A stretch of DNA of 26,084 nucleotides from Promethearchaeota archaeon (GTDB lineage: Archaea > Asgardarchaeota > Lokiarchaeia > Sigyniarchaeales > SOKP01): contig JBHLNT010000050.1 of the NCBI GenBank assembly GCA_048941265.1, forward strand, positions 1 through 26,084, in the 5' to 3' direction. Position numbers and translations under genes: made by a program. The notes beneath the pieces are model-generated. The model was given only the letters and a program-made list of their open reading frames with translations, did not search any database and had not been told where the DNA came from. Below are positions 1,978-25,381 of this stretch, piece by piece. Numbering within the stretch: position 1 is the first letter of the stretch; every line of letters begins with the position of its first letter.

Positions 1978-3042
1978 GTGAAACGAAATTTGACAGAAGA
2001 TTTAACACTTTTAGATGTCCGAGAGAAGGCACGGGAAAAATTGAAAGGCATCTGTGGAGTTTATAGAAATTGCGACGGATTAGATACAAGATTATGTCAG
2101 GGGCATAGTTATGGAGAACCTCTGGGAATTGGAGGAGTAGGGAGCGGTTCAAGCTTTCATAATAATTTTCTTGCTTTAAAAAAACTTCTTCTTAAAATGA
2201 GGGTAATTGGACCTGATTTTGAAGCTGATACAAAATTTTTTTTTTTTGGCAAAGAACTATCAATGCCGATTATGGGAGCTAGTGTTGCTGGAGTAAATAG
2301 CTTTGGAGGTGAAAATGTAATTTCCGAAAAAGAATTTTGTAAGTCAGTTGTTTTAGGATGTAAAGAAGCAGGAACGGTAGGCTGGCGTGGAGATTCTTAT
2401 ACATATTCATTACAAAATACTTGGGGAATAGACGCCATAGCTGAAGCAAATGGATGGGGAGTTAAAATTATTAAACCTCGTGATCAAGAGATCATTATAA
2501 AGTTTTTTGAGAAATCAGAGGAAGCCGGAGCTATTGCTGTAGGAATAGATGTTGATGGGTGTGGATCATATGCAATGGCGAAATATGATAAACCTATTTA
2601 TCGCAAAAGTATGGAAGACCTTAAGGAATTAGTGAAATCAACTTCATTACCAGTTATTATTAAAGGAATTATGTCTATCGAAGATGCATTAGCTGCTGTT
2701 GAAGCAGGAGCATCCGCAATTGTAATCTCTAATCATGGAGGGAGAGTACTTGATCATACTCCTGGAACGGCAGATGTACTCCCTAATATTGTGGCTGAAT
2801 TAAAAGATAAAGTTATGATTTTAGCGGATGGAGGAATTAGAAATGGTTATGATGTATTAAAAATGCTAGCATTAGGTGCCAATGCAGTTTTGATTGGAAG
2901 AGATATAGTAAGAGCTGCTGTTGGTGCTGGAATATTAGGGGTAAGATTACAAATGGAATTTTTGCAACAAACATTAGCGAAAGCAATGAAAATGACAGGT
3001 GTTAAATCTTTGAAAGAAATAACATCAGATATTTTAGTTTAA
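1978..3042 (+). CDS. FMN-dependent alpha-hydroxy-acid dehydrogenase/oxidase (LldD/glycolate oxidase family)
   Basis: PVIIKGI, SNHGGRVLD, ADGGIR.G.DVLK.LALGA..V.IGR motifs; N-terminal Cys cluster; GTG start 8 nt after the fumC stop. Confidence 0.9.
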   Translation: MKRNLTEDLTLLDVREKAREKLKGICGVYRNCDGLDTRLCQGHSYGEPLGIGGVGSGSSFHNNFLALKKLLLKMRVIGPDFEADTKFFFFGKELSMPIMGASVAGVNSFGGENVISEKEFCKSVVLGCKEAGTVGWRGDSYTYSLQNTWGIDAIAEANGWGVKIIKPRDQEIIIKFFEKSEEAGAIAVGIDVDGCGSYAMAKYDKPIYRKSMEDLKELVKSTSLPVIIKGIMSIEDALAAVEAGASAIVISNHGGRVLDHTPGTADVLPNIVAELKDKVMILADGGIRNGYDVLKMLALGANAVLIGRDIVRAAVGAGILGVRLQMEFLQQTLAKAMKMTGVKSLKEITSDILV

Positions 3043-3057
3043 TTTTTTTTCTTTTTT
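3043..3057 (+). terminator. Putative archaeal oligo-T terminator
   Basis: TTTTTTTTCTTTTTT immediately after the stop codon. Confidence 0.5.
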
Positions 3058-3160
3058 ACCCATTATATGTATTAATTTTTTATAAAAATTAGAATTAAAT
3101 ATCAACTTAGGTAAATTAAAGGTAAGCTATCTTGAAAAATATACAAAAAGGTTATCAATT

Positions 3161-4432
3161 ATGAGTCAAAATCCAAGTAAATGTGAAACAACAGATTCAT
3201 TTGTGTGCGATGATTATAAAGAAGAAGAGCCCCAGCTTTGTGAACTGGATCGGTCTAAAACATACAAAGGATTAGTGGGAATATATGTTGATGAGAGTTT
3301 GATCACGTTCATTGACGGAATACATGGTAAATTATATTATAGAGGCTATGCCCTCGAGGATTTAGTAAAAAATTCAAACTTCGAAGAAGTAGCCTACCTT
3401 TTAATTTATGGCAGATTACCTTCTAAAAGTCAATTTAATTCCTTTAAAGATCAATTAGTAAGGGAGCGAAATATTCCAGATAATATTCTAACTATTTTAA
3501 AAAGTTATCCAAGAAACACAACTAGGATAGAATTGCTCCGTACATCTGTTTCCGCTTTATCATTATATGACCCCGATGATTATGATTTTTCTGAAGAGGC
3601 TAATATTAGAAAAGGAATTAGAATAATAGCAAAAATTCCTACAGTTTTAGCATTTTCACATAGAATCCAATCTAACTTACCTTTAGTAGAACCATCTGAA
3701 GAACTCTCTCATGCTGCAAATTATTACTATATGATGACTGGGAGAGAACCTAGTAAAGAATTTGAAAGTGCATTCGATAAAATTTTAATATGCCAAGCTG
3801 ATCATTCTATTAATTCATCAACATTTTCCTGTCGAGTAACAGTTTCTACATTATCAGATATTTATAGCGGGATAACAAGCGCAATCGGTACATTAAGAGG
3901 CCCCCTACATGGAGGTGCAAACGAGCGTGTAATGCGGATGATGGTAGAGGATATTAAGAAAAAAGAAAATATTATTCCTTTTGTCATGAGGAAGTTAGAA
4001 AACAAAGAAAAAATTATGGGATTTGGCCATCGCGTTTATAAGACATGGGATCCACGGGCTCGAATATTACGTGAATTATTAAGAAATTTTTGGGAAAAAT
4101 GGAAAAAAGGAGAAATCATTGATAAAATTCCAGATCCTTTACATGACATTGATCATGGAGAAATAGATAATATCTTTGAAATGACTGAAGTTCTTGTTGA
4201 TTATATGGTTAAAACAAAAAATCTTTATCCTAATGTAGATCTATATTCAGCAGGATTATTACATATTCTTGGAATTCCTACCCCATTGTTTACACCTTTA
4301 TTCGCGGCTTCGAGAAGCGCAGGATGGGTTGCCCATGCTATTGAACAACTTTCGGACAATAAACTCATTAGACCCAGACTTCGATATATTGGGGACCTTG
4401 ATAAGAATTATATAAAAATAGATAGGAGATAA
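3161..4432 (+). CDS. gltA: Citrate synthase
   Basis: G.LYYRGY, DHSINSST, GPLHGGAN, GFGHRVYK..DPR, PNVD and R..GW.AH catalytic motifs. Confidence 0.9.
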   Translation: MSQNPSKCETTDSFVCDDYKEEEPQLCELDRSKTYKGLVGIYVDESLITFIDGIHGKLYYRGYALEDLVKNSNFEEVAYLLIYGRLPSKSQFNSFKDQLVRERNIPDNILTILKSYPRNTTRIELLRTSVSALSLYDPDDYDFSEEANIRKGIRIIAKIPTVLAFSHRIQSNLPLVEPSEELSHAANYYYMMTGREPSKEFESAFDKILICQADHSINSSTFSCRVTVSTLSDIYSGITSAIGTLRGPLHGGANERVMRMMVEDIKKKENIIPFVMRKLENKEKIMGFGHRVYKTWDPRARILRELLRNFWEKWKKGEIIDKIPDPLHDIDHGEIDNIFEMTEVLVDYMVKTKNLYPNVDLYSAGLLHILGIPTPLFTPLFAASRSAGWVAHAIEQLSDNKLIRPRLRYIGDLDKNYIKIDRR

Positions 4433-4496: not shown

Positions 4497-7178
4497 TTGG
4501 ATGGTATTGAATTAAAAAACAAATTAAAGGAGAAAATAACGAGTAAATTAGGAACTGCTGTAATTTATAACATTCAAAAGTTAAAGGATTTAAACTTAGG
4601 TGATATCACCAGATTACCTTATTCGCTACGAATTTTGCTAGAAAATATGGTTAGAAATTTAGATGATAAAATTATTACTTATGAACATGTGATTGCCCTC
4701 TCAAAATGGATTCCAAATAATAAAACTAAAATAGAAATTCCATACATTCCATCTAGAGTGCTGCTTCAAGATTTTACTGGTGTCCCAGCGATGGTTGATC
4801 TGGCGGCATTACGATCTGCTATGGAGCGAGCCGGAGGTGATCCTTCCAGAATAAATCCAATAGTACCTGCCGATTTAGTGATTGACCACTCAATACAAGT
4901 AGATTTTTATGGTACTAAACAAGCGGTTCAAAAAAATGAAGAAAAAGAAATGGAGCGTAACCGCGAGCGATATCTTTTTTTAAAATGGGCTCAAAGTGTT
5001 TTTGATAATTTTCGAGTAGTTCCCACTAGTAGAGGGATTTGCCATCAAGTTAATTTGGAATATTTAGCTTCTGTTGTACATTTGAGAGAAGTAAAAGGAG
5101 AAAAAATCGCTTTTCCAGATACTTTAGTGGGAACAGATTCTCATACTACAATGATTAATAGTTTAGGTGTTTTAGGGTGGGGAGTGGGTGGTATTGAAGC
5201 AGAGGCAGTTCTTTTAGGGCAACCTTATTACATGCCTTTACCTGAAGTTGTGGGAGTGAAATTAATTGGAGAGATAAAACCCGGTATCACGGCAACAGAT
5301 GTCGTGTTAACTATTACTCAAATATTAAGGAATCACGGCGTTGTCGGAAAATTCGTTGAATTTTATGGCCCAAGCTTAAAGGAATTAAGTTTGGAAGATA
5401 GAGCCACTATTGCCAATATGTCTCCTGAATATGGAGCAACTATGGGTTTTTTTCCCGTTGATGATAAAACAATTGCTTATTTGAGATCAAGTGGCAGAAA
5501 AGATGAAAATATTAATTTAGTAGAAAAATACCTAAAGAAAGTTGGCATATTTTATATGGATAATACACATATACCTGAATTTAGCGAGCATATAGAGGTT
5601 AATTTAAGTACTGTTAAACCAACTATAGCAGGTCCTAAGCGTCCACAGGACAGAATTTTACTTCCCGATATGAAAAATGTATTTATAGATCAGATGAAAA
5701 CAATATTCAATAAGCCAAACGAAATAGAAAATATATCAAAAGGAGACCAGCTAAACCATGGAGCAGTTATAATCGCTGCTATTACATCTTGCACTAATAC
5801 ATCTAATCCTACAGTAATGATAGGGGCAGGTCTATTAGCAAGGAACGCTTTAGAAAAAGGTTTAAAAGTACAAGATTTTGTAAAAACGAGTTTTGCACCA
5901 GGTTCGAGAGTAGTTACTGATTATATGGAAAACTCAGGTCTAATGTCCTACCTCGAACAATTGGGATTTAATTTAGTTGGATATGGATGCACAACTTGTA
6001 TTGGAAATAGTGGTCCTTTAAAGCAGGAATTTGTTAAAGAAATTAATGAAAAAGATCTTGTTGTCGCTTCAGTTTTAAGCGGTAATAGAAACTTTGAAGG
6101 TCGGATTAATCCTCATGTAAGAGCAAACTATCTCGCATCTCCTCCTCTCGTTGTTGCATTTGCATTAGCAGGCACAATTGCGATAAATATGAATGAGGAG
6201 CCATTAGGTGTAGATAAAAGCGGTAACTCCGTATATTTAAAAGATATTTGGCCGAGTACAGATGAAATCATGCAAATAACCGATAAACATGTTAGCCCGG
6301 AATTATTTCATAAGGAATATGGTGAAATCTTTAAAGGATGGGATTTATGGAATCAACTCAAACCTCCTGAAGAAGAAGTTTATAAATGGGATGAGTCTTC
6401 TACCTATATTCGTGAACCTCCATTTTTTGTCAATTTTCCTTTAGAAGAAACCCCCTTGGAGGATATCAAAAATTCCAGGGTATTAGCATTATTGGGTGGA
6501 AGTGTCACAACTGACCACATTTCTCCCGCAGGGACTATACCTAAAGATATGCCCGCAGCTCAATATCTAATTTCGAAAGGGATAGATGTCAAAGACTTCA
6601 ATTCATTTGGATCTAGAAGGGGAAACCATGAAGTTATGATGCGGGGGACTTTTGGAAATATTAGAATTAGAAACAAACTTGTGGATAAAGAGGGAGGATG
6701 GACTATTAATCATGTAACTGGGAATATTGTTCCAATTTATGATGCTGCAATGGATTATGAAAAGAATGGAATTCCGCTAATAGTATTAGCGGGAGATGAT
6801 TATGGAATGGGTAGTTCAAGGGATTGGGCAGCAAAAGGAACACAATTATTAGGTGTAAAAGCAGTTATAGCGGAGTCATTTGAGAGAATTCATAGGAGTA
6901 ATTTGGTAGGAATGGGAGTCTTACCACTTCAATTTAAAGAGGGTGAGAATGCACATTCATTAGGATTAACAGGTAAAGAGACTTATGAAATTTTAGGAAT
7001 AAAAGATATAGTCCCGCTAGGAGAACTAACTGTAATTGCTAAATCTGATGATGGACAAAAAAAAACCTTTAAAGTAATAGCAAGATTAGATACTCCCATT
7101 GATATAGAATACTTTCGCAATGGTGGGATCTTACACACAGTTTTAAAGAATATTTTAAAAGAAACTTTAGCTAAATAG
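4497..7178 (+). CDS. acnA: Aconitate hydratase A (probably also 2-methylisocitrate dehydratase)
   Basis: QDFTGVP, DHS.QVD, GTDSHT, ITSCTNTSNP, GYGCTTCIGNSG, TTDHISPAG, GSSRDWAAKG; TTG start preceded by AAGTGA. Confidence 0.96.
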   Translation: MDGIELKNKLKEKITSKLGTAVIYNIQKLKDLNLGDITRLPYSLRILLENMVRNLDDKIITYEHVIALSKWIPNNKTKIEIPYIPSRVLLQDFTGVPAMVDLAALRSAMERAGGDPSRINPIVPADLVIDHSIQVDFYGTKQAVQKNEEKEMERNRERYLFLKWAQSVFDNFRVVPTSRGICHQVNLEYLASVVHLREVKGEKIAFPDTLVGTDSHTTMINSLGVLGWGVGGIEAEAVLLGQPYYMPLPEVVGVKLIGEIKPGITATDVVLTITQILRNHGVVGKFVEFYGPSLKELSLEDRATIANMSPEYGATMGFFPVDDKTIAYLRSSGRKDENINLVEKYLKKVGIFYMDNTHIPEFSEHIEVNLSTVKPTIAGPKRPQDRILLPDMKNVFIDQMKTIFNKPNEIENISKGDQLNHGAVIIAAITSCTNTSNPTVMIGAGLLARNALEKGLKVQDFVKTSFAPGSRVVTDYMENSGLMSYLEQLGFNLVGYGCTTCIGNSGPLKQEFVKEINEKDLVVASVLSGNRNFEGRINPHVRANYLASPPLVVAFALAGTIAINMNEEPLGVDKSGNSVYLKDIWPSTDEIMQITDKHVSPELFHKEYGEIFKGWDLWNQLKPPEEEVYKWDESSTYIREPPFFVNFPLEETPLEDIKNSRVLALLGGSVTTDHISPAGTIPKDMPAAQYLISKGIDVKDFNSFGSRRGNHEVMMRGTFGNIRIRNKLVDKEGGWTINHVTGNIVPIYDAAMDYEKNGIPLIVLAGDDYGMGSSRDWAAKGTQLLGVKAVIAESFERIHRSNLVGMGVLPLQFKEGENAHSLGLTGKETYEILGIKDIVPLGELTVIAKSDDGQKKTFKVIARLDTPIDIEYFRNGGILHTVLKNILKETLAK

Positions 7179-7265: not shown

Positions 7266-7339
7266 TCAAAATCATCCTAATTTATGAGTAAATTAAAGCA
7301 GGCTTTTTATTTAATATAAAAAAATAATTGGTTTTAGTG

Positions 7340-8221
7340 ATGAGTGATCATAATAAAAGTCCGGGTAAAAGGTTTCGTGAAGCCTTAGAGTATAATAAGC
7401 CCTTACAACTCGTTGGAACTATTAATGCCCTTGCTGCAATGATGGCAAATAAAGTAGGTTATAAAGCCATATATTTATCTGGAGCTGGTGTAGCTAATGC
7501 TTCATTTGGTTTACCGGATCTAGGTATTACAACTTTAGATAATGTAGCAGAAGATGCGCGAAGAATAACTCAAGCAGTTGATATACCTTTGATTGTGGAC
7601 ATTGATACTGGTTTTGGAGGAATTGCCTTTACTATTGCTCGTACAATAAAAACCTTAGAGAGGATTGGCGTAGCAGGAATTCATATTGAAGATCAAAAAG
7701 TATTTAAAAGATGTGGACACCGCCCAAATAAAAAGATTGTGCCTGCTGAAGAAATGTGTGATCGATTAAAAGCTGCTATCGAAGCTCGCAAAGATCCTAA
7801 CTTTATGATAATTGCTAGGACAGATGCTTTCGCTATCGAAGGTATAGAAGGTGTTATAAGAAGAGCCCGTTTATATGAAGACGTCGGTGCTGATGCGATT
7901 TTTCCTGATGCATTAACTTCTTTAAATCAATATAAAGCATTAGTTAATAATTTATCTATTCCAATCTTGGCAAATATCACTGAATTTGGTAGAACACCTC
8001 TTTTTACATTAGAAGAATTGAGAAATATAAATGTTGGGATAGTTCTTTATCCTTTAACTGCATTTCGTGCTATGTATAAAGCTGCTGAAGAAGTATATAA
8101 GATTATAATAAAAAAGGGAACTCAAAAAAATTTGATCGAAAAAATGTATACCCGTTCTGAATTATATAAACTCCTTAATTATGAGTCTTATGAAGATTTT
8201 ATTGACCGTTTATACGGTTAA
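7340..8221 (+). CDS. prpB: 2-methylisocitrate lyase
   Basis: YLSGA, GLPDLG, VDIDTGFG, HIEDQ, KRCGH catalytic loop, ARTDA, ANITEFG.TP. ATG at 7340 preferred over TTG at 7328. Confidence 0.94.
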   Translation: MSDHNKSPGKRFREALEYNKPLQLVGTINALAAMMANKVGYKAIYLSGAGVANASFGLPDLGITTLDNVAEDARRITQAVDIPLIVDIDTGFGGIAFTIARTIKTLERIGVAGIHIEDQKVFKRCGHRPNKKIVPAEEMCDRLKAAIEARKDPNFMIIARTDAFAIEGIEGVIRRARLYEDVGADAIFPDALTSLNQYKALVNNLSIPILANITEFGRTPLFTLEELRNINVGIVLYPLTAFRAMYKAAEEVYKIIIKKGTQKNLIEKMYTRSELYKLLNYESYEDFIDRLYG

Positions 8222-8264
8222 GATAAAGAATATTAAAACTTATCTATAAAAAAGTGATTAAATA

Positions 8265-9383
8265 ATGAATGAAATAAAAAAAAGGGAAAGTGGTTTAAGA
8301 GGTTATGAGGTAACCAACTCTGCAATTTGTAGTATAACTGATGGGCTATTATATAGAGGTTATCCAATAGAACAACTCGCAAAATTAAGTACGTTTGAAG
8401 AAACATCATATTTGATTTTAAATGGCGAACTTCCTACAAAAAATAATTTATCTGACTGGAGTGAAAAATTAATTAAATATCGAAGAATTCCCGAATTAGT
8501 AAAAATGGTTATGGACCACATACCATCAAATGCTCATCCGATGGACGTTATCCGTACTGGTGTTTCTGTTTTGGGTATTGCTAAACCTGAAAGACCTACT
8601 GTTCCATTAAAATCTGTACTTCGCGTTCTAGGAGTTTTACCCTCAATAATGGGTTACTGGTACGCGAGAGCGAGAGGTAAAATCTTTAATATAAAGAATA
8701 TTGAAGAGGTAACTTATAGTGGTTATCTTTTAAAGATGATTAAAGAAGAATATATAGAAGTAGAAAGAAAAATGATAAATACCTCATTAATTTTATATGC
8801 GGAACATGAACTCAACGCATCCACCTTTTCAGCAAGAGTGTGCTCGTCTACCGCAGCTGACTATTATGCCTGTATAACCAATGCTATTTGTTCTTTGAGC
8901 GGACCTAAACACGGTGGAGCAAATGAAGCAGTATTAAATTTGATTTCAAAATTTAACTCTCCAGATGAGGCTGTAGAGGGGGTTAGGAACTTGCTGAACA
9001 CCAATCAAAAAGTTCCAGGATTTGGTCATCCAGTATATCTAAGCGAAGATCCAAGGAGCTCTATCATCAAGGAATGGGCATATCGAATATCAACTGAAAA
9101 AAAAGATACAAAGCTCTATGATATCGGTACTGCTATTGAAGGTATAATGCACAATGAATGTAAAGATCCCTGCACATTCCCAAATCTCGATTTTTATTCC
9201 GCTATCGCGTATTCAGGAGCAGAAATTGAGACTGTTTTATTTACACCTTTATTTGTTATAAGTAGAGCTTGTGGGTGGTCGGCTCATATCTTAGAACAGA
9301 GAATTATAAATGAATTATTACGACCCATAGCAAATTATATCGGAGTCGAAAAACGTAGATATTTACCTATTGCAGAGCGTTAA
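8265..9383 (+). CDS. prpC: 2-methylcitrate synthase
   Basis: Citrate synthase family motifs (LLYRGY, YAEHELNAST, GPKHGGANE, GFGHPVY, PNLDFY); HPMD; lies between prpB and prpD. Confidence 0.88.
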   Translation: MNEIKKRESGLRGYEVTNSAICSITDGLLYRGYPIEQLAKLSTFEETSYLILNGELPTKNNLSDWSEKLIKYRRIPELVKMVMDHIPSNAHPMDVIRTGVSVLGIAKPERPTVPLKSVLRVLGVLPSIMGYWYARARGKIFNIKNIEEVTYSGYLLKMIKEEYIEVERKMINTSLILYAEHELNASTFSARVCSSTAADYYACITNAICSLSGPKHGGANEAVLNLISKFNSPDEAVEGVRNLLNTNQKVPGFGHPVYLSEDPRSSIIKEWAYRISTEKKDTKLYDIGTAIEGIMHNECKDPCTFPNLDFYSAIAYSGAEIETVLFTPLFVISRACGWSAHILEQRIINELLRPIANYIGVEKRRYLPIAER

Positions 9384-9413
9384 TTAATACAATATTATTT
9401 AAGTGCATAAAAT

Positions 9414-10859
9414 ATGAGTGAAAAGATTTCCTCTAACGAAAATCTTCCAGATAAAGAAATTGTTGACATAGTAAATTATGTTTTAGATTATAAAGTAGAA
9501 TCTCAAGAAGCTTACGACACCGCCCGGCTCTGTTTAATGGATAGTATCGGGTGTGCAATCACAGCGCTTCAATTTTCCGAGTGTACTAAACTTTTGGGCC
9601 CTGTAATACAAGATATAAAAGTTCCAAATGGTTCAAGAGTTCCAGGTACTCTTTATGAATTAGATCCTATTACTGCTGCATTTAATATCGGTCTGTTAAT
9701 ACGATGGCTTGATTATAATGATACTTGGTTAGCAGCTGAATGGGGGCATCCATCAGATAATTTAGGTGCAATATTAGCAGTATCGGATTATATTTCCAGA
9801 AAAAATGTTGCAGAAGGTATGAAACCATTAAAAGTTCATGATGTACTCACTGCTATGATTAAAGCTCACGAGATACAAGGGATTATGGCTCTTGAAAATA
9901 GTTTTAATGAAAAAGGAATTGATCATGTAATATTAGTGAAACTAGCTAGCACAGCGGTAGCTTCTAGCCTATTAAACTGTACTAAAACACAAATGATTAA
10001 CGCAATATCAAACGTATGGATTGATTTAGGTCCCCTCAGGACTTATCGTCATTGGCCGAACACGGGTTCTCGAAAAAGTTGGGCCGCAGGGGATGCTACG
10101 AGTAGGGCAGTTTTTCTAGCCCTTTTAGCTAAAAAGGGTGAAATGGGATATCCTACTGCCTTAACAACTCCAAAATGGGGATTCTATGCCCGCATTTGGA
10201 ATGGTGAACAGTTTAAGTTTCAAAGACCATATGGAAGTTATGTCATGGAAAATGTGCTTTTCAAAGTATCTTTTCCTGCTGAATTTCACGGTCAAACAGC
10301 AGTAGAAGCAAGCATAAAATTGCATCCAAAAGTGAAAGATCAACTGGATCAAATAGAAAAAATACAAATTAATACGCAGCAAGCGGGAAACCAGATTATA
10401 AATAAAATAGGCCCTCTTAAAAATCCTGCTGATAGAGACCATTGTATCCAATATATGACAGCAATTGGACTAATATTCGGTAATCTTGAGGCTGAAGATT
10501 ATGAAGATAAGCGTGCCTTAAATCCAATGATCGATGAATTAAGAAGTAAAATGGAAGTTAGAGAAAATTTACAATATATTATAGATTATCACGATCCTAG
10601 TAAGAGATCGGTGGCAAATTCAGTCCAAGTTTTCTTTAAAGATGGTACTACTACGAAAAAAGAGACTGTAGAGTATCCAATTGGACACAAATTTAGAAGG
10701 AAAGAAGCTGTTCCATTATTGATAGAAAAATTTAAGAAGAACATGAAAATTAAATTCTCCCCGTTACAGATCTCTTATTTGGTTGATATTTTTAGAAATC
10801 AAAAAGACTTAGAGCTTATGCCTGTTAATGAATTTATGGAAAGATTTCAAATAAAATAA
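9414..10859 (+). CDS. prpD: 2-methylcitrate dehydratase
   Basis: RWLDYNDTWLAAEWGHPSDN, LRTYRH.PNTGSRKSWAAGDA, FPAEFH.QTAVE, ADRDHCIQY, EYPIGH. Confidence 0.96.
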   Translation: MSEKISSNENLPDKEIVDIVNYVLDYKVESQEAYDTARLCLMDSIGCAITALQFSECTKLLGPVIQDIKVPNGSRVPGTLYELDPITAAFNIGLLIRWLDYNDTWLAAEWGHPSDNLGAILAVSDYISRKNVAEGMKPLKVHDVLTAMIKAHEIQGIMALENSFNEKGIDHVILVKLASTAVASSLLNCTKTQMINAISNVWIDLGPLRTYRHWPNTGSRKSWAAGDATSRAVFLALLAKKGEMGYPTALTTPKWGFYARIWNGEQFKFQRPYGSYVMENVLFKVSFPAEFHGQTAVEASIKLHPKVKDQLDQIEKIQINTQQAGNQIINKIGPLKNPADRDHCIQYMTAIGLIFGNLEAEDYEDKRALNPMIDELRSKMEVRENLQYIIDYHDPSKRSVANSVQVFFKDGTTTKKETVEYPIGHKFRRKEAVPLLIEKFKKNMKIKFSPLQISYLVDIFRNQKDLELMPVNEFMERFQIK

Positions 10860-12910: not shown

Positions 12911-12960
12911 CTAAATTTCCTAACATATCTTAGGTTAAATCACTAATAATGGAGTTAAAA

Positions 12961-13653
12961 ATGTCCTACATTGTTCAAAATGAAAAACTTATACAAAATG
13001 AAATGACCAAATTGAAAAATAAAGTCACTTTAAAGCTCTTTACCGACTTTAAAACTGAAGAAAATGGGACTAAAATCAGAAATTGTATGGCATGTGATAG
13101 TACTTTCAATTTATTAAATACATTAAAAGAACACTCAGATGGAAAGTTAGAGGTAGAGGAATATTCTACCCAAGAAAATTCGGATATAGCTGATAAATAT
13201 GAGGTTGTCAGAATTCCAACAATTCTATTCATTGATGAAAAAGACCGAGAAGTCATTCGTTATACTGCTGAACCTTCAGGAGCAGAATTAGTTCCTTTTA
13301 TAAAAAGTATCCAGGATTTTTCCGGAGCTGTTTCTTTTTATAAGGATACTATAATGACAAATCTTAAGAAAATCGGGAAATCAGAAATAAAATTGTTTAT
13401 TACTCATACGTGTCCATATTGTCCCACAGTAGTACCTATTGCAAATCTATTTGCTACTTTATCAGATGGAAAAATTAAAGTTAATATTATTGATATTAAT
13501 GCCAATCAAGACATTGCTATGAAATATCAAATTCAGGGAGTGCCCCATACTATGATAAATGAAAAAGAACACATTTATGGCATGTTCTCACCTCAAGACT
13601 TATTAGAGAAACTTACAAAAGGAAAAAGAGATTTTGATGGAATGTATGCTTAA
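12961..13653 (+). CDS. Protein-disulfide oxidoreductase (two thioredoxin folds, PDO/AhpF-NTD-like), copy 1
   Basis: CMAC and CPYC motifs with the cis-Pro loops RIPT and GVP. GGAG at 12951 supports the ATG at 12961 over 12949. Confidence 0.88.
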   Translation: MSYIVQNEKLIQNEMTKLKNKVTLKLFTDFKTEENGTKIRNCMACDSTFNLLNTLKEHSDGKLEVEEYSTQENSDIADKYEVVRIPTILFIDEKDREVIRYTAEPSGAELVPFIKSIQDFSGAVSFYKDTIMTNLKKIGKSEIKLFITHTCPYCPTVVPIANLFATLSDGKIKVNIIDINANQDIAMKYQIQGVPHTMINEKEHIYGMFSPQDLLEKLTKGKRDFDGMYA

Positions 13654-13679
13654 TCTAAAATTAAAAAGTAAAGGAGGTT

Positions 13680-14372
13680 ATGAAAAAATTGTCTTCAGAT
13701 GAACATTATAAAGAAATAATTAGAAAGGAAATGGCCAAATTAAAAAAGCCAGTTAAATTAAAAGTTTTTACCTCACAAAAGGTTCAAGCAGATGGAACTA
13801 AAATAAGAGCATGTATGGATTGTGGTGAATTTATGACTTTATTACGAATATACGAGGAAAACTCAAATGGAATGCTCCAGATAGAAGAATTATCGATTGA
13901 TGACAATCCCGAGTATGCAAAACGCTATGATATTTCCCGTGTACCAACAATCCTTTTTGTTGATAACAATAATAAAGAAATAATTAGATATTTAGCAGCT
14001 CCCCAGGGTGCTGAAATCCAACCTTTCATCCAGTCCATATTTACATTTGCCGGAGCTCCGAATTATTATGAACCCACAATAAAGCAAAATTTGGATCGAA
14101 TAAAATCTACTACTATAAAAGTAATGATGACAGAAACTTGTCCTTATTGTCCCCAAGTTATTACAATAGCAAATATGTTCGCAATAGCATCTGGAGGAAA
14201 AATTCGAACAGTTATAATAGATATCAATGCCAATCCAGATATTGGGCAATATTATGATGCTGCTGGTGTACCATATACTATTTTTAATGATCAAAAAACC
14301 TTAACCGGTATGGTCGGACCGAACGAGATACTAAGGGCATTAATAGGAGGGAATATCCGTGTTTCCTACTGA
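13680..14372 (+). CDS. Protein-disulfide oxidoreductase, copy 2
   Basis: CMDC and CPYC motifs, RVPT and GVP; AGGAGG RBS; clear paralog of the upstream gene. Confidence 0.9.
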   Translation: MKKLSSDEHYKEIIRKEMAKLKKPVKLKVFTSQKVQADGTKIRACMDCGEFMTLLRIYEENSNGMLQIEELSIDDNPEYAKRYDISRVPTILFVDNNNKEIIRYLAAPQGAEIQPFIQSIFTFAGAPNYYEPTIKQNLDRIKSTTIKVMMTETCPYCPQVITIANMFAIASGGKIRTVIIDINANPDIGQYYDAAGVPYTIFNDQKTLTGMVGPNEILRALIGGNIRVSY

Positions 14373-15303
14373 TTCGCTTGGGTTCGATCCAGAAAAAATA
14401 TATGATATTATCGTATTAGGTGGTGGTCCAACAGCTATAGGGTGTGCGATCTATGCCGCAAGGTTCGCAATGGATGTACTTATTATTGGCAAGACATTTG
14501 GCGGATTAATAGCTACAACCCATATTGTTGAAAATTATCCGGGCATTACTTCCGTTAGCGGCCTGGGATTTACGGAAATGTTTAGGGAACATATGCAGTC
14601 CTTAAATATTTCCTACATTTCTGATGAGATTAACAGTATTGAGAAGCAAAATGATCATTTTATACTACATTCATTTTTTCAAAAGTTTAAAGCCTATTCT
14701 ATTTGTATCGCAACTGGATCAGTAAGAAGGAAATTAGGAATTCCAGGTGAAGAGGAATTTGCGGGGAAAGGAGTTTCTTATTGCGCTACGTGTGATGGAC
14801 CCTTTTTTAAAGATAAAGTTGTATGTGTAATAGGAGGAAGCGATTCTGCCGCTAAAGAAGCCTTATTCCTTGCGCAGAATGCTAAAAAAGTTTATATTAT
14901 TTATCGAGGCGAAGAAATACGAGCTGAACCTATAAATAAAAAACGTGTATATAAAAATGAGAAAATAGAAATCATATATAAAACAAATGTCGCAGAAATA
15001 AAAGGAGATAATTCAGTAAAATCAGTAATATTTGATAATGGTAAGGAGTTTAAAGTTGATGGGGTATTTATTGAAATTGGTTCTATACCAAATTCGGATT
15101 TAGCAAAAAGAATTGGAGTGAATACCAATGAAAAAGGTGAAATCATTATTAATCGGAAATCAGAAACGAATATCCCTGGTATTTTTGCTGCAGGAGATGT
15201 TGCGGATGCACCTTTTAAGCAAGCGATCACGGGAGTAGCAGAAGGAGTAATTGCTGCGTATTCCGCTTTTGATTATCTCAAAGAGATGACAATAGAATAT
15301 TAA
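14359..15303 (+). CDS. trxB: Thioredoxin reductase
   Basis: GGGP FAD motif, ENYPG, GVSYCATCDG, GGSDSA, FAAGDV; GTG start with GGAGG RBS, overlapping the upstream gene. Confidence 0.93.
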   Translation: MFPTDSLGFDPEKIYDIIVLGGGPTAIGCAIYAARFAMDVLIIGKTFGGLIATTHIVENYPGITSVSGLGFTEMFREHMQSLNISYISDEINSIEKQNDHFILHSFFQKFKAYSICIATGSVRRKLGIPGEEEFAGKGVSYCATCDGPFFKDKVVCVIGGSDSAAKEALFLAQNAKKVYIIYRGEEIRAEPINKKRVYKNEKIEIIYKTNVAEIKGDNSVKSVIFDNGKEFKVDGVFIEIGSIPNSDLAKRIGVNTNEKGEIIINRKSETNIPGIFAAGDVADAPFKQAITGVAEGVIAAYSAFDYLKEMTIEY

Positions 15304-15322: not shown

Positions 15323-16894
15323 TTAATACGCCCCATATTTTAAGGTAGTTTCTACCCATATCTTAAGGTTTTTAAAAGGAGTATCTGGAGCAACCTCGCA
15401 ACCTTCTGCCATCATATATCCACCTCCTTCTTTGCATCCCTCAATCAATTCCTTGGTTTTCTCTATTATTTGTTGTTCTGTTCCAAAACGTAGGAGTTTT
15501 GTTTGAATATTGCCCATTATACAAAATCGATTACCTAGCATTTCTTTAGCTTTAAAAATATCAGAGTCTTCTAAATGAAGAATATACTTCCCATTTTTAG
15601 GAAATTCGAGGAAATAATGAAAGAAGGGGGTCCAATCAGTATCCATATGAAATACAGTAATAAGGCCATTTCTAACATTCTCTTTAACAATTTGTTTTAA
15701 GTCCTCTAAAACTAATTCTTCGAAATTGTTAGGAGAAATAAACATTGGACTTACACGTTCCAAACAAATATAAGTCCTTTTTACTTGAGACAATGAATAC
15801 ATTACATAATCATTAGCCATGGTAGCATCGAGGAGTAATTCACAAAATTCTTTGAGTTCTTCCCTGTGTTTCTTAATTGCTTTAGACCAATTCTTTATAC
15901 CCATTAAATAACATAATCCTTCCAAGGGTGTTACTATTCCACTTGTTGCATAAATGGGTACTTTTTTTTTATTTTCCCAGTAATTAATAAATTTTCCAAT
16001 TTTTAAGAAATCAGCTTGAGTTTCAAGAATCTTTAAATTACTTACTGGTCTCCATATCGATCTTAATCCTAATCTTTTAATTTTTTCAAAATCTTTTGTT
16101 TTTATATATCCTTTTTCTATAAATTGAAGAGTACTTGGCACTTCATCAGAATAATCCAACTCATTATAGAATCCCGAAGGACCTAAGGGTAATATATTAT
16201 AAAAGGCGTATAGGCGACCCATGGGGAGATGAACCATATCAATCTTCCCTCCAAATTTTGCGTATGTATTTTTAACAGCAGTAAAGATATTTTCTATAGG
16301 ACCTAAAACAAATTCTTTGGATGACATATTATTATTGGCAGCATAAAAATAGTCCATCAATGGAGTAATAGGGATTCGATCTGGCTCTTTAAGCTGAATT
16401 GCTTTATTAAAGCGCTCATATGAGGTTGAATCCTCATCTATTTTGGGCTCTTTTAATGGGATGAGCTTCTTCTTTTTTCGATATTGGATAATAGCTTTTA
16501 ATTCTTCTTGATGATTATGATTTAAATTAATTCTCCTCATTTCATTACTTAATTTCATTTGATGTAAAGCTAATTTACCGATATTAATTACTCCGATGTT
16601 AGAAATACTTCTTATGAGATTCTTTACGATAAATGAACCATAACTGCCCTTAAAAAAAATCTTAATATTATTTAAAGCATGTCTTTCACCTCTTAATTCA
16701 TTAAACCAATGTTTTTCAACTTCTCCATATAACAATTTTTCAAGCCTATCAATCCTATAACGAAGTCCCTTTTTTCCATACAATAAGATTTCATATTCTT
16801 CAATTTCCTCTCGGAGTAATTCTTTTAGATCAAGCGATCTCTTTTTCATCTTATATCTAAAGTACTCAATTTTTTCGTGAATCTTTTTTTTCAA
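15323..16894 (-). CDS. Uroporphyrinogen decarboxylase / MtaA-CmuA methyltransferase superfamily protein with a long N-terminal extension
   Basis: ERF..AI..KEPDRIP, FISP..FEEL, FHMD, DIFKAKE.LG..FCIMGNI, GGGYMMAEGCE..PDTP..NL. Confidence 0.82.
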   Translation of the reverse strand: MKKKIHEKIEYFRYKMKKRSLDLKELLREEIEEYEILLYGKKGLRYRIDRLEKLLYGEVEKHWFNELRGERHALNNIKIFFKGSYGSFIVKNLIRSISNIGVINIGKLALHQMKLSNEMRRINLNHNHQEELKAIIQYRKKKKLIPLKEPKIDEDSTSYERFNKAIQLKEPDRIPITPLMDYFYAANNNMSSKEFVLGPIENIFTAVKNTYAKFGGKIDMVHLPMGRLYAFYNILPLGPSGFYNELDYSDEVPSTLQFIEKGYIKTKDFEKIKRLGLRSIWRPVSNLKILETQADFLKIGKFINYWENKKKVPIYATSGIVTPLEGLCYLMGIKNWSKAIKKHREELKEFCELLLDATMANDYVMYSLSQVKRTYICLERVSPMFISPNNFEELVLEDLKQIVKENVRNGLITVFHMDTDWTPFFHYFLEFPKNGKYILHLEDSDIFKAKEMLGNRFCIMGNIQTKLLRFGTEQQIIEKTKELIEGCKEGGGYMMAEGCEVAPDTPFKNLKIWVETTLKYGAY

Positions 16895-17321: not shown

Positions 17322-17627
17322 TTATTCAATAGCTACGTCTATGCTATGAAACTCTGGTTCTTTAAATGGGACATCTATTTTCAATAATCCATTTTTATAT
17401 ACTGCTTTAGCATTTTCAGGGTCAATCTCGCAGCAAACAGCATAAGATCCAATATATACAGTATCTCCTGTCTCTCCTTTAATAAAGAATGAATCTTCGT
17501 GCATTTTGAGTTTTATAGCATCCTTTTCTACTCCTGGGAGGGTAATTTCTATATGGTATGTATTATGTTCATCATTTGGCCACATACATACATCGGGAGA
17601 TATATAAATCTTTTCTTCTTCTGACAT
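17322..17627 (-). CDS. Small heat-shock protein (Hsp20/alpha-crystallin domain)
   Basis: LPGVEKD.IKL and A.YKNGLLKI.VP motifs; 101 aa. Confidence 0.9.
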   Translation of the reverse strand: MSEEEKIYISPDVCMWPNDEHNTYHIEITLPGVEKDAIKLKMHEDSFFIKGETGDTVYIGSYAVCCEIDPENAKAVYKNGLLKIDVPFKEPEFHSIDVAIE

Positions 17628-17902
17628 AATATTTCACTTTTCTATTATAATCAATGTATTTGACTTCTAATATCAAAATAAGGCAATTGGATTTTTAAAC
17701 GTTTTTTCTATGATTTATTAGAAATTAGATGATTTCGCAACTTTTAGAGCAACGACTACATGATGAATATTTTTAATTTATAAATTCACTCAAATGGACA
17801 ACTTTTAAGTTTTAGTCATCAATTTTTTAAATGATATTATTAGAATATAAAATGTAATGAATTAAAATCCAAAAAATATCAAATATAAATGGAGGTTAAA
17901 TA

Positions 17903-18190
17903 ATGACTTTAGCAAACATACCAGTTATTCTTGAAAAGATAAATAAGGAAGATATAAATAAACAGATATTAAGAACTGCCATGTTGGCTGAACTTGATGC
18001 TATCAATCTCTATGAACAGATGGCTGCTTTAACGGATGATAAAAATATCAAAGCTGTCTTAATGGATGTAGCCAAGGAAGAGAAGGAACATGTTGGAGAA
18101 TTCCAATATATGTTATTAAAACATGACAAACAACAAGAAAAAGAACTACAGGAAGGAATGGAAGAAGTTAAAGAATTACTTGGAGAGTAG
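17903..18190 (+). CDS. Ferritin-like protein (encapsulated-ferritin/Flp type)
   Basis: AELDAINLYEQ and EEKEHVGEF ferroxidase motifs; GGAGG RBS; T-tract at 18211-18220. Confidence 0.88.
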   Translation: MTLANIPVILEKINKEDINKQILRTAMLAELDAINLYEQMAALTDDKNIKAVLMDVAKEEKEHVGEFQYMLLKHDKQQEKELQEGMEEVKELLGE

Positions 18191-24244: not shown

Positions 24245-24793
24245 TTAATCGGTAACAGTTTTGTCAAATAAACAATAAATACTTGTTTTAAATATTTGAT
24301 AAAAGAAACCAGTATTATCGATTATCTCTTTAATTTTTTCTTTTAAATCATCTATAATTTTATCAGTTATATCTGGTTTAAAGTTGCTTAAATCTGGATC
24401 ATATTTATGTAGGAAAATTGATACTTCAATATTACTAATATCATTTCTGTCTTTAAGTAGAATGATGATTTTTTCATAATAATCTAAGGCTAAATCATAT
24501 CTATTTACATCTTGAACATCAAACACATAAATGAGTTTATCTAATCCCTTAAAATAATTATCATAATTTGCCAAATATTCATCTCTATAAGCTTCTTGAC
24601 CACCAAGATCCCAAACAATAAATTCTGAATCATAGGCTTTAATTGATATTATATTTCTTCTAACTGTGGGTCTTGCTTTACAAAATGTGGGCAGATTTCT
24701 TGTCCCCCTTAAACTATATGCGATTGAAGTTTTGCCGCTATTATCTAATCCGGCTAATAATATAACCTTGCCAATTTTTGATGATTCCGTCAT
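24245..24793 (-). CDS. Small Ras-superfamily GTPase (Arf/Rag-like, Asgard type)
   Basis: G1 GLDNSGKT, G2 PT, G3 WDLGGQ, G4 HKYD, G5 TSIY; ATG at 24793 preferred. Confidence 0.9.
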   Translation of the reverse strand: MTESSKIGKVILLAGLDNSGKTSIAYSLRGTRNLPTFCKARPTVRRNIISIKAYDSEFIVWDLGGQEAYRDEYLANYDNYFKGLDKLIYVFDVQDVNRYDLALDYYEKIIILLKDRNDISNIEVSIFLHKYDPDLSNFKPDITDKIIDDLKEKIKEIIDNTGFFYQIFKTSIYCLFDKTVTD

Positions 24794-24851
24794 ATATTTA
24801 TGTTTTTTAATATAATTCAATTCTATTTAATAAAATATCAAGTTAATGTAT

Positions 24852-25196
24852 TTATCTTGATGTTTTTAAGGTATCTTGAATATTCAATTCCGCTAATGTT
24901 CGTAACTTTTCTCTCTGGAGAGTTATTACAAATGATTGGACAAATGTCAGAATCTTAAATATATATTGATATTTAATAGTATAGTAGTTTAGATTTTCTC
25001 TTTCTTCAATAGTTATGAGATCCTCATCATTCAATTTCTTTAAATGTTGAGAAATAGTAGATTGACTCTTTTTAAGGGTTTCTTGAATTTCCTTAGAAGT
25101 TTTTTCACCATTTTTCAATAATTCCAAAATTTCTAAACGTGTCTGATCTGATAATACCTTTAGAAAATCCGCGGTTTTTTCTGTTAATTCGCTCAT
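24852..25196 (-). CDS. ArsR/SmtB-family winged-HTH transcriptional regulator
   Basis: LKVLSD.TRLEIL.LL and SQSTISQHLKKL motifs; ATG at 25196 preferred. Confidence 0.9.
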   Translation of the reverse strand: MSELTEKTADFLKVLSDQTRLEILELLKNGEKTSKEIQETLKKSQSTISQHLKKLNDEDLITIEERENLNYYTIKYQYIFKILTFVQSFVITLQREKLRTLAELNIQDTLKTSR

Positions 25197-25381
25197 ATTT
25201 TTCAAAGTTTTGGACTGAAGTTATGAAATTAAGTTAACTACGATAACATTTAAAGATTTTACTAATGATTTATTAATTCAATATTTTATGATTCAATAAG
25301 TTTGGACTAAGGGGCAATTCTTAAGTAATCATTAATAAATATATATTTAAAAATGATCTTTATAGATTAAAGATATGGTTT

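Follow-up and report, generated by a model that had tools for sequence, protein, structure and literature searches.

A cysteine-containing FMN-dependent dehydrogenase encoded among citric acid cycle genes of an Asgard archaeon, and its tentative assignment to NAD-independent malate oxidation

Introduction

Within the citric acid (tricarboxylic acid, TCA) cycle, the thermodynamic bottleneck is the step in which nicotinamide adenine dinucleotide (NAD+) oxidises malate, and its known bypass, the flavin adenine dinucleotide (FAD) enzyme Mqo working with quinones, is lacking in many strict anaerobes. Here, we describe a gene of a Promethearchaeota archaeon, referred to as X, located at nt 1978–3042 of the forward strand of contig JBHLNT010000050.1 (26,084 nt; this whole stretch is hereafter called the window), just after fumC, coding for fumarase, and before the gene of citrate synthase (CS). 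The original prediction, made from the sequence alone, had proposed for this flavin mononucleotide (FMN)-dependent family member in the malate dehydrogenase slot a role as non-orthologous malate oxidase. For the group of proteins including X, designated clade A, the best-supported description is a NAD-independent dehydrogenase working with the citric acid cycle, while the identification of X as a NAD-independent FMN/Fe-S L-malate dehydrogenase is a tentative one, falling just short of what we would call probable.

The enzymes known to catalyse the reaction proposed for X, namely Mqo (PF06039) and the NAD-dependent malate dehydrogenases (Mdh) of the Ldh_1 and Ldh_2 families, have no homology to it; like Mqo, X would need no NAD and would run exergonically towards oxaloacetate, but its cofactors would be FMN and a metal centre, with no evident link to membrane or quinones. 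The closest described structures are instead glycolate oxidase (GOX)/HAO1, long-chain hydroxy-acid oxidase (LCHAO) and (4-hydroxy)mandelate oxidase, sharing the FMN barrel with X (template modelling (TM) score 0.70–0.77, 24–30% identity). Their C-terminal half aligns with X, with the catalytic Lys, His and Arg kept, whereas the N-terminal half is barely alignable (5–20 bits). Unlike those oxidases, X shows an insert of ~20 residues with three invariant cysteines, an Ile at the position of Tyr129 and a deletion involving Arg164 and loop 4. Given the presumably anaerobic host and the existence of rubredoxin-fused relatives, a protein acceptor would be expected for X rather than O2.

Among the dehydrogenases of the family, the yeast flavocytochrome b2 (L-lactate:cytochrome c oxidoreductase; about 103–124 bits to X) similarly combines an FMN_dh barrel with an N-terminal one-electron carrier, but its carrier is a haem b5 domain in place of a cysteine motif and/or rubredoxin, its substrate is lactate and its gene context is a different one. 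The Escherichia coli LldD is likewise a NAD-independent member of the FMN family (hhalign probability 99.9 over 291 columns), but has a long loop 4, the canonical Tyr and Arg, no cysteine motif and a place in the lactate operon lldPRD. The nearest group of all, the sister clade B, resembles X in length (~340 aa), in the presence of an N-terminal cysteine motif at the same place and in sequence (about 42–48% identity); it differs in having four cysteines instead of three, no TCA neighbours, twin-arginine-like leaders in some members and, in one case, lactate-utilisation genes alongside.

Family, Predicted Fold and Active Site of X

Open reading frames (ORFs) were called on the window, scanned with Pfam and NCBIfam, and compared with solved relatives and, by tblastn, with the whole source genome. 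X matched PF01070 (FMN_dh) with 213.1 bits (cut-off 24.9) in two stretches, the best one spanning residues 211–353. No match to Ldh_1 (PF00056/PF02866), Ldh_2 (PF02615) or Mqo was found among its eight Pfam matches with E ≤ 0.001, so that X, if malate-oxidising, would be non-orthologous to the known malate dehydrogenases. A glutamate-synthase-like role was considered and rejected, PF01645 scoring only 27.7 bits against the 213 bits of FMN_dh. X also remained under every equivalog cut-off of NCBIfam, including two LldD models (143 bits vs. 376 and 128 bits vs. 550), L-lactate oxidase (106 vs. 645) and the pre-mycofactocin synthase MftD (122 vs. 471). X-type proteins carry in databases such names as "alpha-hydroxy-acid oxidizing protein", "L-lactate oxidase", "4-hydroxymandelate oxidase" and "lactate dehydrogenase-like", and the ESM Atlas record is equally generic.

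An AlphaFold model built on an alignment of 28 orthologues (42–89% identity) reached a mean predicted local distance difference test (pLDDT) of 80.5 and a predicted TM score (pTM) of 0.85, with poor confidence at residues 28–56, 194–202 and 254–259. The model is a (beta/alpha)8 barrel of the glycolate-oxidase type (Foldseek E about 1e-23), matching mandelate oxidase, LCHAO, GOX and flavocytochrome b2 with the TM scores given above. Good alignment to solved family members was limited to the C-terminal half of X, about residues 193–354. This half contains the catalytic core (nt 2662–2745), with K229 and S251-N-H253-G-G-R256 invariant in 28/28 orthologues; K229, H253 and R256 align with the catalytic Lys, His and Arg of the solved oxidases and of E. 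coli LldD, which we take to be K230, H254 and R257 in the numbering of spinach glycolate oxidase.

The substrate-binding side is different. The canonical binders of the substrate carboxylate are the strand-3 Tyr129 and Arg164 at the start of loop 4, together with the N-terminal Tyr24. In X, the position of Tyr129 is occupied by Ile165, and the Arg164 region is deleted along with most of loop 4, which is several dozen residues shorter; the phmmer alignment to human HAO1 and the hhalign alignment to E. coli LldD agree on both points. As for Tyr24, the alignments begin only at G52, and an invariant Y45, seven residues upstream, falls inside the unreliable model region 28–56. Since Lys, His and Arg are kept while Tyr129 is replaced and loop 4 deleted, X, as judged from these alignments, retains the residues on which the chemistry depends, but in a remodelled substrate pocket. 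X is a predicted FMN-binding 2-hydroxy-acid dehydrogenase, whose cofactors, substrate and acceptor we infer. Fold and chemistry are known ones; the novelty lies in the combination of cysteines and rubredoxin, in the modified pocket and in the association with TCA genes. The freely accessible full texts covered yielded no description of this clade, of an FMN-dependent malate dehydrogenase or of a gene for the malate step of Desulfobacter.

The source genome gave 18 matches to PF01070, including the two stretches of X. A dozen or more of its proteins, each of ~345 aa, are paralogues matching this family weakly (contigs C91, C330, C24, C65, C227, C286 and others; L003–L009). They were considered as possible paralogues of X, and the two that were checked turned out to be members of the nitronate monooxygenase (NMO/FabK-like) family, whose expansion here is unusually large.

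Cysteine Motif, Rubredoxin Fusions and Separation of Two Clades

The three N-terminal cysteines noticed originally as a possible metal or Fe-S site exist, and are arranged as C26-x5-C32-D33-G34-x5-C40 (nt 2053–2097); all three are invariant in 28/28 orthologues, as are D33 and G34. A scan of GTDB genomes with the orthologue alignment retrieved 80 loci, and a tree was built from 76 rows of the X domain, 75 from the scanned loci plus the window, after dropping two ATP-grasp fusions longer than 600 aa and with three loci having no called X ORF. The tree splits the rows into clades A and B with a Shimodaira–Hasegawa-like approximate likelihood ratio test (SH-aLRT) value of 100, and places the X of the window within a set of 24 rows composed purely of clade A (SH-aLRT 98).

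Clade A proteins show the motif C-x5-C-D-G-x5/6-C, membership having been assigned by placement on their side of the split together with the pattern C-x5-C-[DN]-[GA]-x(4-7)-C ahead of the barrel, which is present in X. They come from Asgard archaea, Spirochaetota, Fibrobacterota, Desulfobacteraceae, a metagenome-assembled genome (MAG) of Myxococcales, Syntrophorhabdaceae, Methanobacteria and Bathyarchaeia. Clade B, found in Clostridia, Fusobacteria, Desulfovibrionaceae, Nitrospirota and others, carries at the same position a ferredoxin-like C-x2-C-x2-C-x4-C. Many clade A proteins (Desulfobacteraceae, Methanobacteria, Bathyarchaeia) have an extra N-terminal rubredoxin domain, confirmed by Pfam in the cluster representatives P0122–P0124 and occurring also in more distant Asgard copies (L040–L044). 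In one Methanosarcinales and one Methanoperedens protein (L087 and L119) the rubredoxin is present and the three-cysteine motif absent.

Because the sister clade has a four-cysteine ferredoxin-like motif at the same place, and because rubredoxin replaces the motif in two lineages, the cysteines probably form an electron-transfer metal centre, of Fe-S or possibly another type, that can be supplemented or replaced by rubredoxin. Of the originally suggested metal site, the invariance and the likeness to an electron-transfer site thus stand, while the structural model is unreliable in that region and the metal itself is deduced from the motif. The rubredoxin fusions further point to an electron-transferring dehydrogenase rather than an oxidase.

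Two clade B proteins, from Desulfovibrionaceae (L102) and Nitrospiraceae (L120), start with twin-arginine-like leaders (RRxFLKG...), suggesting periplasmic export. Among distant relatives (33–45% identity), an N-terminal fusion to an ATP-grasp/L-amino-acid-ligase domain, giving proteins of ~720–930 aa, was seen in P0132, P0146, P0148, P0152, P0158, P0162, P0175, P0185, P0197 and P0202, and a fusion to a HAD phosphatase in P0169; such fusions indicate that the scaffold has been reused in other pathways.

Linkage of X with TCA Cycle Genes

The window is the whole of one contig (C278) of a 361-contig, 5.0-Mb genome (G000), with an estimated completeness of 91%, and the nearest relatives of its proteins are labelled Promethearchaeota, Lokiarchaeota, Thor-, Heimdall- or Hermodarchaeota. 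A search for sequencing runs of this stretch gave seven DNA runs, five of them, from two studies, containing all or part of it, and no RNA run. The gene order sdhB-fumC-X-CS-acnA read originally was recovered from ORF calls and Pfam/NCBIfam matches, and is followed by prpBCD. The 3' part of sdhB, coding for the Fe-S subunit of succinate dehydrogenase/fumarate reductase (nt 1–585, +; Pfam Fer2_3/Fer4_8, NCBIfam dhsB), is truncated by the contig start and overlaps by 8 nt the class II fumarate hydratase gene fumC (fumarase/aspartase family; nt 578–1969, +; Lyase_1 and FumaraseC_C). The FumC protein scored 565 bits with TIGR00979, under the cut-off, and 522 bits with the aspartase subfamily model NF008909, above its cut-off of 510. 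An aspartase identity was nevertheless set aside, since the solved fumarases (best 448 bits) outscore aspartase (399 bits), and stays as a caveat.

The distance of 8 nt between fumC and X was also right, with the fumC stop at nt 1967–1969 and the GTG codon of X, giving 354 aa, at nt 1978. Translation of X may truly start from a TTG codon at nt 1990, which would give 350 aa and extend the intergenic gap to 20 nt, because a Shine-Dalgarno-like GGGTGA (nt 1976–1981, +) lies 8 nt upstream of that codon and database gene calls begin at residue 5, as seen in both the database copy of X (P0002, 350 aa) and the ESM Atlas record. The T-rich tract noticed after the stop codon is present at about nt 3043–3060 (+) and may possibly mark the end of a sdhAB-fumC-X transcription unit; an A+T-rich spacer with a TATA-like run separates it from CS (nt 3161–4432, +; PF00285 407 bits, TIGR01800 435 bits vs. 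cut-off 421), which is followed by the aconitate hydratase gene acnA (nt 4497–7178, +; TIGR01341 1359 bits vs. 945).

Upstream, the genes for the alpha and beta subunits of a 2-oxoacid:ferredoxin oxidoreductase (OFOR), and then sdhA, were located by tblastn on another contig of the same genome (C78:9206–13548), at the end of its 13,809 bases. The complete cluster is therefore most likely OFORab-sdhA-sdhB-fumC-X-CS-acnA-prpBCD, with C78 joining the window start inside sdhB; a related genome (L045) shows OFORab-sdhA-sdhB-fumC-X-acnA unbroken. No gene for a membrane anchor (sdhC/D) was seen adjoining sdhAB in the clusters read.

X was then searched in 201 sampled Asgard genomes (calls at E ≤ 1e-40) and found in 41, the source genome included: 36 copies at 62–100% identity, two of them fragments at contig edges, and five at 42–46%. 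Twenty-nine related Asgard loci were read with 1.5-kb flanks, and longer stretches for some. The conservation of the fumC-X pair, which had been proposed as a check, proved strongly positive and wider than expected: fumC adjoins X in 11 of the 29 loci, at least one of fumC, CS, acnA and sdhB lies within 1.5 kb in 14, and OFOR beta adjoins X in three further loci. Since the adjacency recurs in this way, the fumC-X arrangement is not due to chance. The orders with fumC were fumC-X with or without CS-acnA, sdhAB ... fumC-X-CS-acnA, OFORab-sdhAB-fumC-X-acnA and X-OFORab-fumC-sdhAB; those without an adjoining fumC were X-CS with either isocitrate dehydrogenase (IDH) or acnA next, IDH-X and OFORab-X.

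Relatives of X were found in TCA clusters of at least seven Asgard families and of several other archaeal and bacterial phyla. Eight of nine Methanobacteria rows read sdhA-sdhB-(fumC)-X, Methanoperedens has sdhAB-X and Bathyarchaeia X-sdhAB, while acnA-sucA-sucB-CS-X occurs in Fibrobacteria, CS-X in Chitinivibrionales, OFORab-X near CS in Desulfocicer and gdh-X-acnA in Syntrophorhabdaceae. When core TCA genes (sdhA, sdhB, fumC, CS, acnA, IDH) were counted for each fetched locus, at least one was present in 28 of 39 clade A loci (two rubredoxin-only rows and the window counted) and in none of the 37 of clade B, a difference supporting a TCA role of clade A. The TCA-linked clade A loci belong to Asgard archaea, Methanobacteria, Bathyarchaeia, Methanoperedens, Fibrobacterota, Treponemataceae, Desulfobacteraceae and Syntrophorhabdaceae.

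In the Methanobacterium-type genomes (L084, L088–L090, L095, L100, L103, L105), sdhA-sdhB-fumC is followed by a rubredoxin-fused X. Methanogen TfrB has a CCG-type thiol-oxidising extension, for which the SdhB of those Methanobacteria, of about 250–265 aa, looks too short. A prediction of the SdhB + X complex (genome G165, with alignments) scored 0.00 against a mark of 0.32, and speaks neither for nor against an interaction.

Co-Occurrence with FumC and Distribution of Known Malate Dehydrogenase Families

As stated originally, the window contains no Mdh or Mqo gene, zero ORFs of at least 80 aa having an Ldh_1, Ldh_2 or Mqo Pfam match. The whole source genome gave no Ldh_1_N and no Mqo match, though one Ldh_2-family gene (see below), while E. 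coli, used as a control genome, matched both the Ldh_1 and Mqo families. FumC was present in 105 of the 201 Asgard genomes, namely in 35 of the 41 with X and in 70 of the 160 others. In the family of the window, X occurred in 12 of 24 FumC-positive genomes and in none of the 16 FumC-negative ones.

Outside the Asgard archaea, the isolate genomes of Desulfobacter latus and Desulfocicer vacuolatum encode a rubredoxin-fused X at 50–54% identity and have no match to Ldh_1_N, Ldh_1_C, Ldh_2 or Mqo, being the only genomes of this kind. Desulfobacter species oxidise acetyl-CoA via a modified citric acid cycle, according to PMC2702500 and PMC9768450.

Two genomes of the same genus as the window (G144 and G138; L138, L139) have fumC flanked on one side by an Iso_dh-family gene with ~40% identity to IDH and on the other by an aconitase-family gene of 650 aa; this set may serve another short route involving fumarate and malate.

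Proposed Function

The tentative assignment to malate rests on the slot of X after fumC and before CS, on its co-transfer with sdhAB and fumC, on its dependence on FumC and on the gap left by other malate dehydrogenases in the Desulfobacteraceae. Textbook redox potentials also favour a flavin/Fe-S route, the oxidation of malate with NAD+ as acceptor being strongly endergonic. In the proposed mechanism, the flavin TIM barrel of X, with its catalytic Lys, His and Arg, would oxidise the C2 hydroxyl to a keto group, converting L-malate to oxaloacetate without NAD. The electron outlet would be the N-terminal three-cysteine metal site, probably Fe-S, rather than O2 or a cytochrome domain, with electrons passing from FMN to Fe-S (or rubredoxin) and then to a protein acceptor; many relatives have a rubredoxin domain fused ahead of the three-cysteine site.

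A broader proposal, which we consider speculative and on the whole unlikely, is that clade A represents a third, non-orthologous type of malate dehydrogenase, an FMN/Fe-S enzyme to which a rubredoxin may or may not be fused, passing malate electrons directly to the neighbouring anchor-less SdhAB. SdhA, SdhB, FumC and X would then constitute a soluble, self-contained "malate dismutation" module (2 malate to oxaloacetate, succinate and water), which together with a NAD-dependent Mdh would give quinone-free anaerobes a route for electrons from NADH to fumarate. The module would have passed by lateral transfer between Asgard archaea, Methanobacteria, Bathyarchaeia and Methanoperedens. In D. postgatei, an NAD(P)-independent and membrane-associated malate dehydrogenase activity was reportedly described decades ago, and on this proposal a clade A enzyme would be the gene product behind it.

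If X oxidises malate, this would close an annotation gap in the metabolic reconstruction of Asgard archaea, methanogens, Bathyarchaeia and sulfate reducers that oxidise acetate, provide the malate step in the cycle of Desulfobacter with a testable gene candidate, and show how the anchor-less SdhAB of quinone-free archaea exchange electrons. Even with another substrate, clade A is a well-defined, widespread and uncharacterised TCA-linked redox enzyme.

Points against Malate and Alternative Explanations

Several observations weigh against malate as the substrate. The first concerns the active site, where the missing Tyr129 and Arg164 suggest that the substrate of X may not be a classical 2-hydroxy acid; candidates for taking over from these two residues are K166, K210, R15 and R312, all invariant. 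The second is the coexistence of other malate dehydrogenase candidates. The source genome has one Ldh_2-family dehydrogenase (403 bits, contig C271), and the Ldh_2 family includes archaeal malate dehydrogenases. Across the survey, Ldh_2 was found in 105/201 Asgard genomes and 35/41 X genomes, and a strong Ldh_1 (E ≤ 1e-25) in 35/201 and 9/41, respectively; only four of the 41 X genomes had neither, all of them 69–87% complete. The anticorrelation with mdh/mqo predicted originally is therefore not found in Asgard archaea, and what stands of it is the lack of Ldh_1_N and Mqo in the source genome and of all the families in the two Desulfobacteraceae, both of which have a malic enzyme offering a bypass. 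Moreover, fumC clusters without X occur in G071, which has fumC-CS, and in both further genomes sampled from the window's genus. As for the context, X adjoins an S58 peptidase gene, with no TCA neighbour, in one Asgard family (f5), lactate-type surroundings exist in clade B, and the frequent adjacency of X to enzymes of 2-oxoglutarate fits L-2-hydroxyglutarate as well. Lastly, most of the surveyed genomes are incomplete MAGs and genomes of one lineage are non-independent; the TCA linkage spans roughly nine class- or phylum-level lineages, within each of which the rows are likewise non-independent. As a whole, the slot and the wide TCA synteny of the malate oxidase reading hold, while malate dehydrogenase candidates coexist with X, the canonical carboxylate binders are not conserved, and the substrate is deduced from the context.

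An unlikely alternative, in our judgement, is that X is a NAD-independent L-lactate (or glycolate) dehydrogenase feeding pyruvate and electrons to the cluster, for instance with lactate oxidation coupled either to pyruvate:ferredoxin oxidoreductase or to the anchor-less fumarate reductase SdhAB. Every close structural relative that has been characterised uses lactate, glycolate, mandelate or long-chain 2-hydroxy acids, the OFORab-X adjacency also suits the formation of pyruvate, and one clade B gene (L096) has as neighbours a lactate-utilisation gene of fused LutB/LutA-like type and one for a sigma-54 response regulator (PMC6491731). However, adjacency to fumC, CS, IDH and acnA in many lineages would be unexpected for such an enzyme, and it is clade B that has no TCA neighbours at all; the Tyr and Arg by which lactate and glycolate enzymes bind the carboxylate are not conserved in X, and no lactate permease was seen in the annotated loci. 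Desulfobacter species, moreover, are acetate specialists, which also counts against lactate.

It seems similarly improbable that X acts on no 2-hydroxy acid, oxidising for example an amino or other group as MftD does, or that it is a mere redox partner of the anchor-less SdhAB. Such a role would be in accordance with the loss of Tyr129 and Arg164 and the shortened loop 4, with the existence of family members of this kind (MftD itself being among the NCBIfam matches of X, under the cut-off) and with the fusion of distant relatives to ATP-grasp ligase or HAD domains; a partner role would suit SdhAB that have no membrane-anchor gene nearby. On the other hand, the Lys and His-Gly-Gly-Arg set typical of 2-hydroxy-acid oxidation is invariant, and no neighbour suggests another substrate.

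Slightly less likely is that the Ldh_2 protein of contig C271 is the malate dehydrogenase of the organism, with X as a dispensable extra that entered the cluster through gene mobility rather than as a pathway step. Ldh_2 is frequent among the X genomes; within the family of the window it occurs in 37 of 40 genomes, X being patchy there (12/40, and in neither of the two other genomes sampled from the genus), and fumC-CS clusters exist without X. Against this stands the location of the Ldh_2 gene away from TCA genes, between those of a cation diffusion facilitator (CDF) transporter and a nitroreductase-like protein, and its scores under all NCBIfam equivalog cut-offs, the best one being for L-sulfolactate dehydrogenase (254 bits vs. 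500). In addition, Ldh_2 occurs in the family irrespective of FumC, being equally common in FumC-less genomes, chance insertion would hardly account for the repeated and independent association of X with TCA genes in distant phyla, and two malate dehydrogenases in one organism are known also from E. coli (Ldh_1 and Mqo).

The least likely of the alternatives, the oxidation of another 2-hydroxy-dicarboxylate, most plausibly of L-2-hydroxyglutarate to 2-oxoglutarate as a repair or amino-acid fermentation step, agrees with the presence near X of OFOR (f22, f7, Hodarchaeota, Desulfobacteraceae), Iso_dh (f12, f16), glutamate dehydrogenase (Syntrophorhabdaceae), sucAB (Fibrobacteria) and glutamate synthase (Spirochaetia), and with that of X beside Ldh_1 and Ldh_2 malate dehydrogenases, but is doubtful considering that the tightest and commonest neighbour is fumC, in Asgard loci and in Methanobacteria, and that X tracks FumC, that ~70% identity across Asgard phyla and a place within the core operon would be surprising for a repair enzyme, and that the clusters encode an OFOR of the broad 2-oxoacid type with no 2-oxoglutarate assignment.

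Other Genes of the Window

Directly 3' of the TCA genes, the window of this Asgard archaeon contains a complete set of methylcitrate-cycle genes (nt 7328–10859), consisting of prpB for methylisocitrate lyase (nt 7328–8221, +; NF008455 457 bits vs. cut-off 353), a prpC-like gene for a 2-methylcitrate synthase-like citrate synthase (nt 8265–9383, +; 409 bits, under the equivalog cut-off) and prpD for 2-methylcitrate dehydratase (nt 9414–10859, +; NF006943 794 bits vs. 575), prpB and prpD both being above the equivalog cut-offs of NCBIfam.

Further downstream (nt 12949–15303, +), two tandem genes for double-thioredoxin-fold proteins are found with one for a thioredoxin-reductase-like flavoprotein. 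They are followed on the opposite strand (region to nt 16894) by a gene whose 523-aa product matches URO-D over its C-terminal 200 aa and no Pfam family over its N-terminal 300 aa. A divergent pair at nt 17322–18190 codes for an Hsp20 (−) and for an EncFtn-like protein (encapsulated ferritin, +), with no encapsulin shell gene seen in the window. Finally, a gene at nt 24245–24820 (−) codes for a small Gtr1/RagA/Arf-type GTPase, one of the eukaryote-like signature proteins that typify Asgard archaea, and adjoins the gene of an ArsR-type regulator (nt 24852–25205, −).

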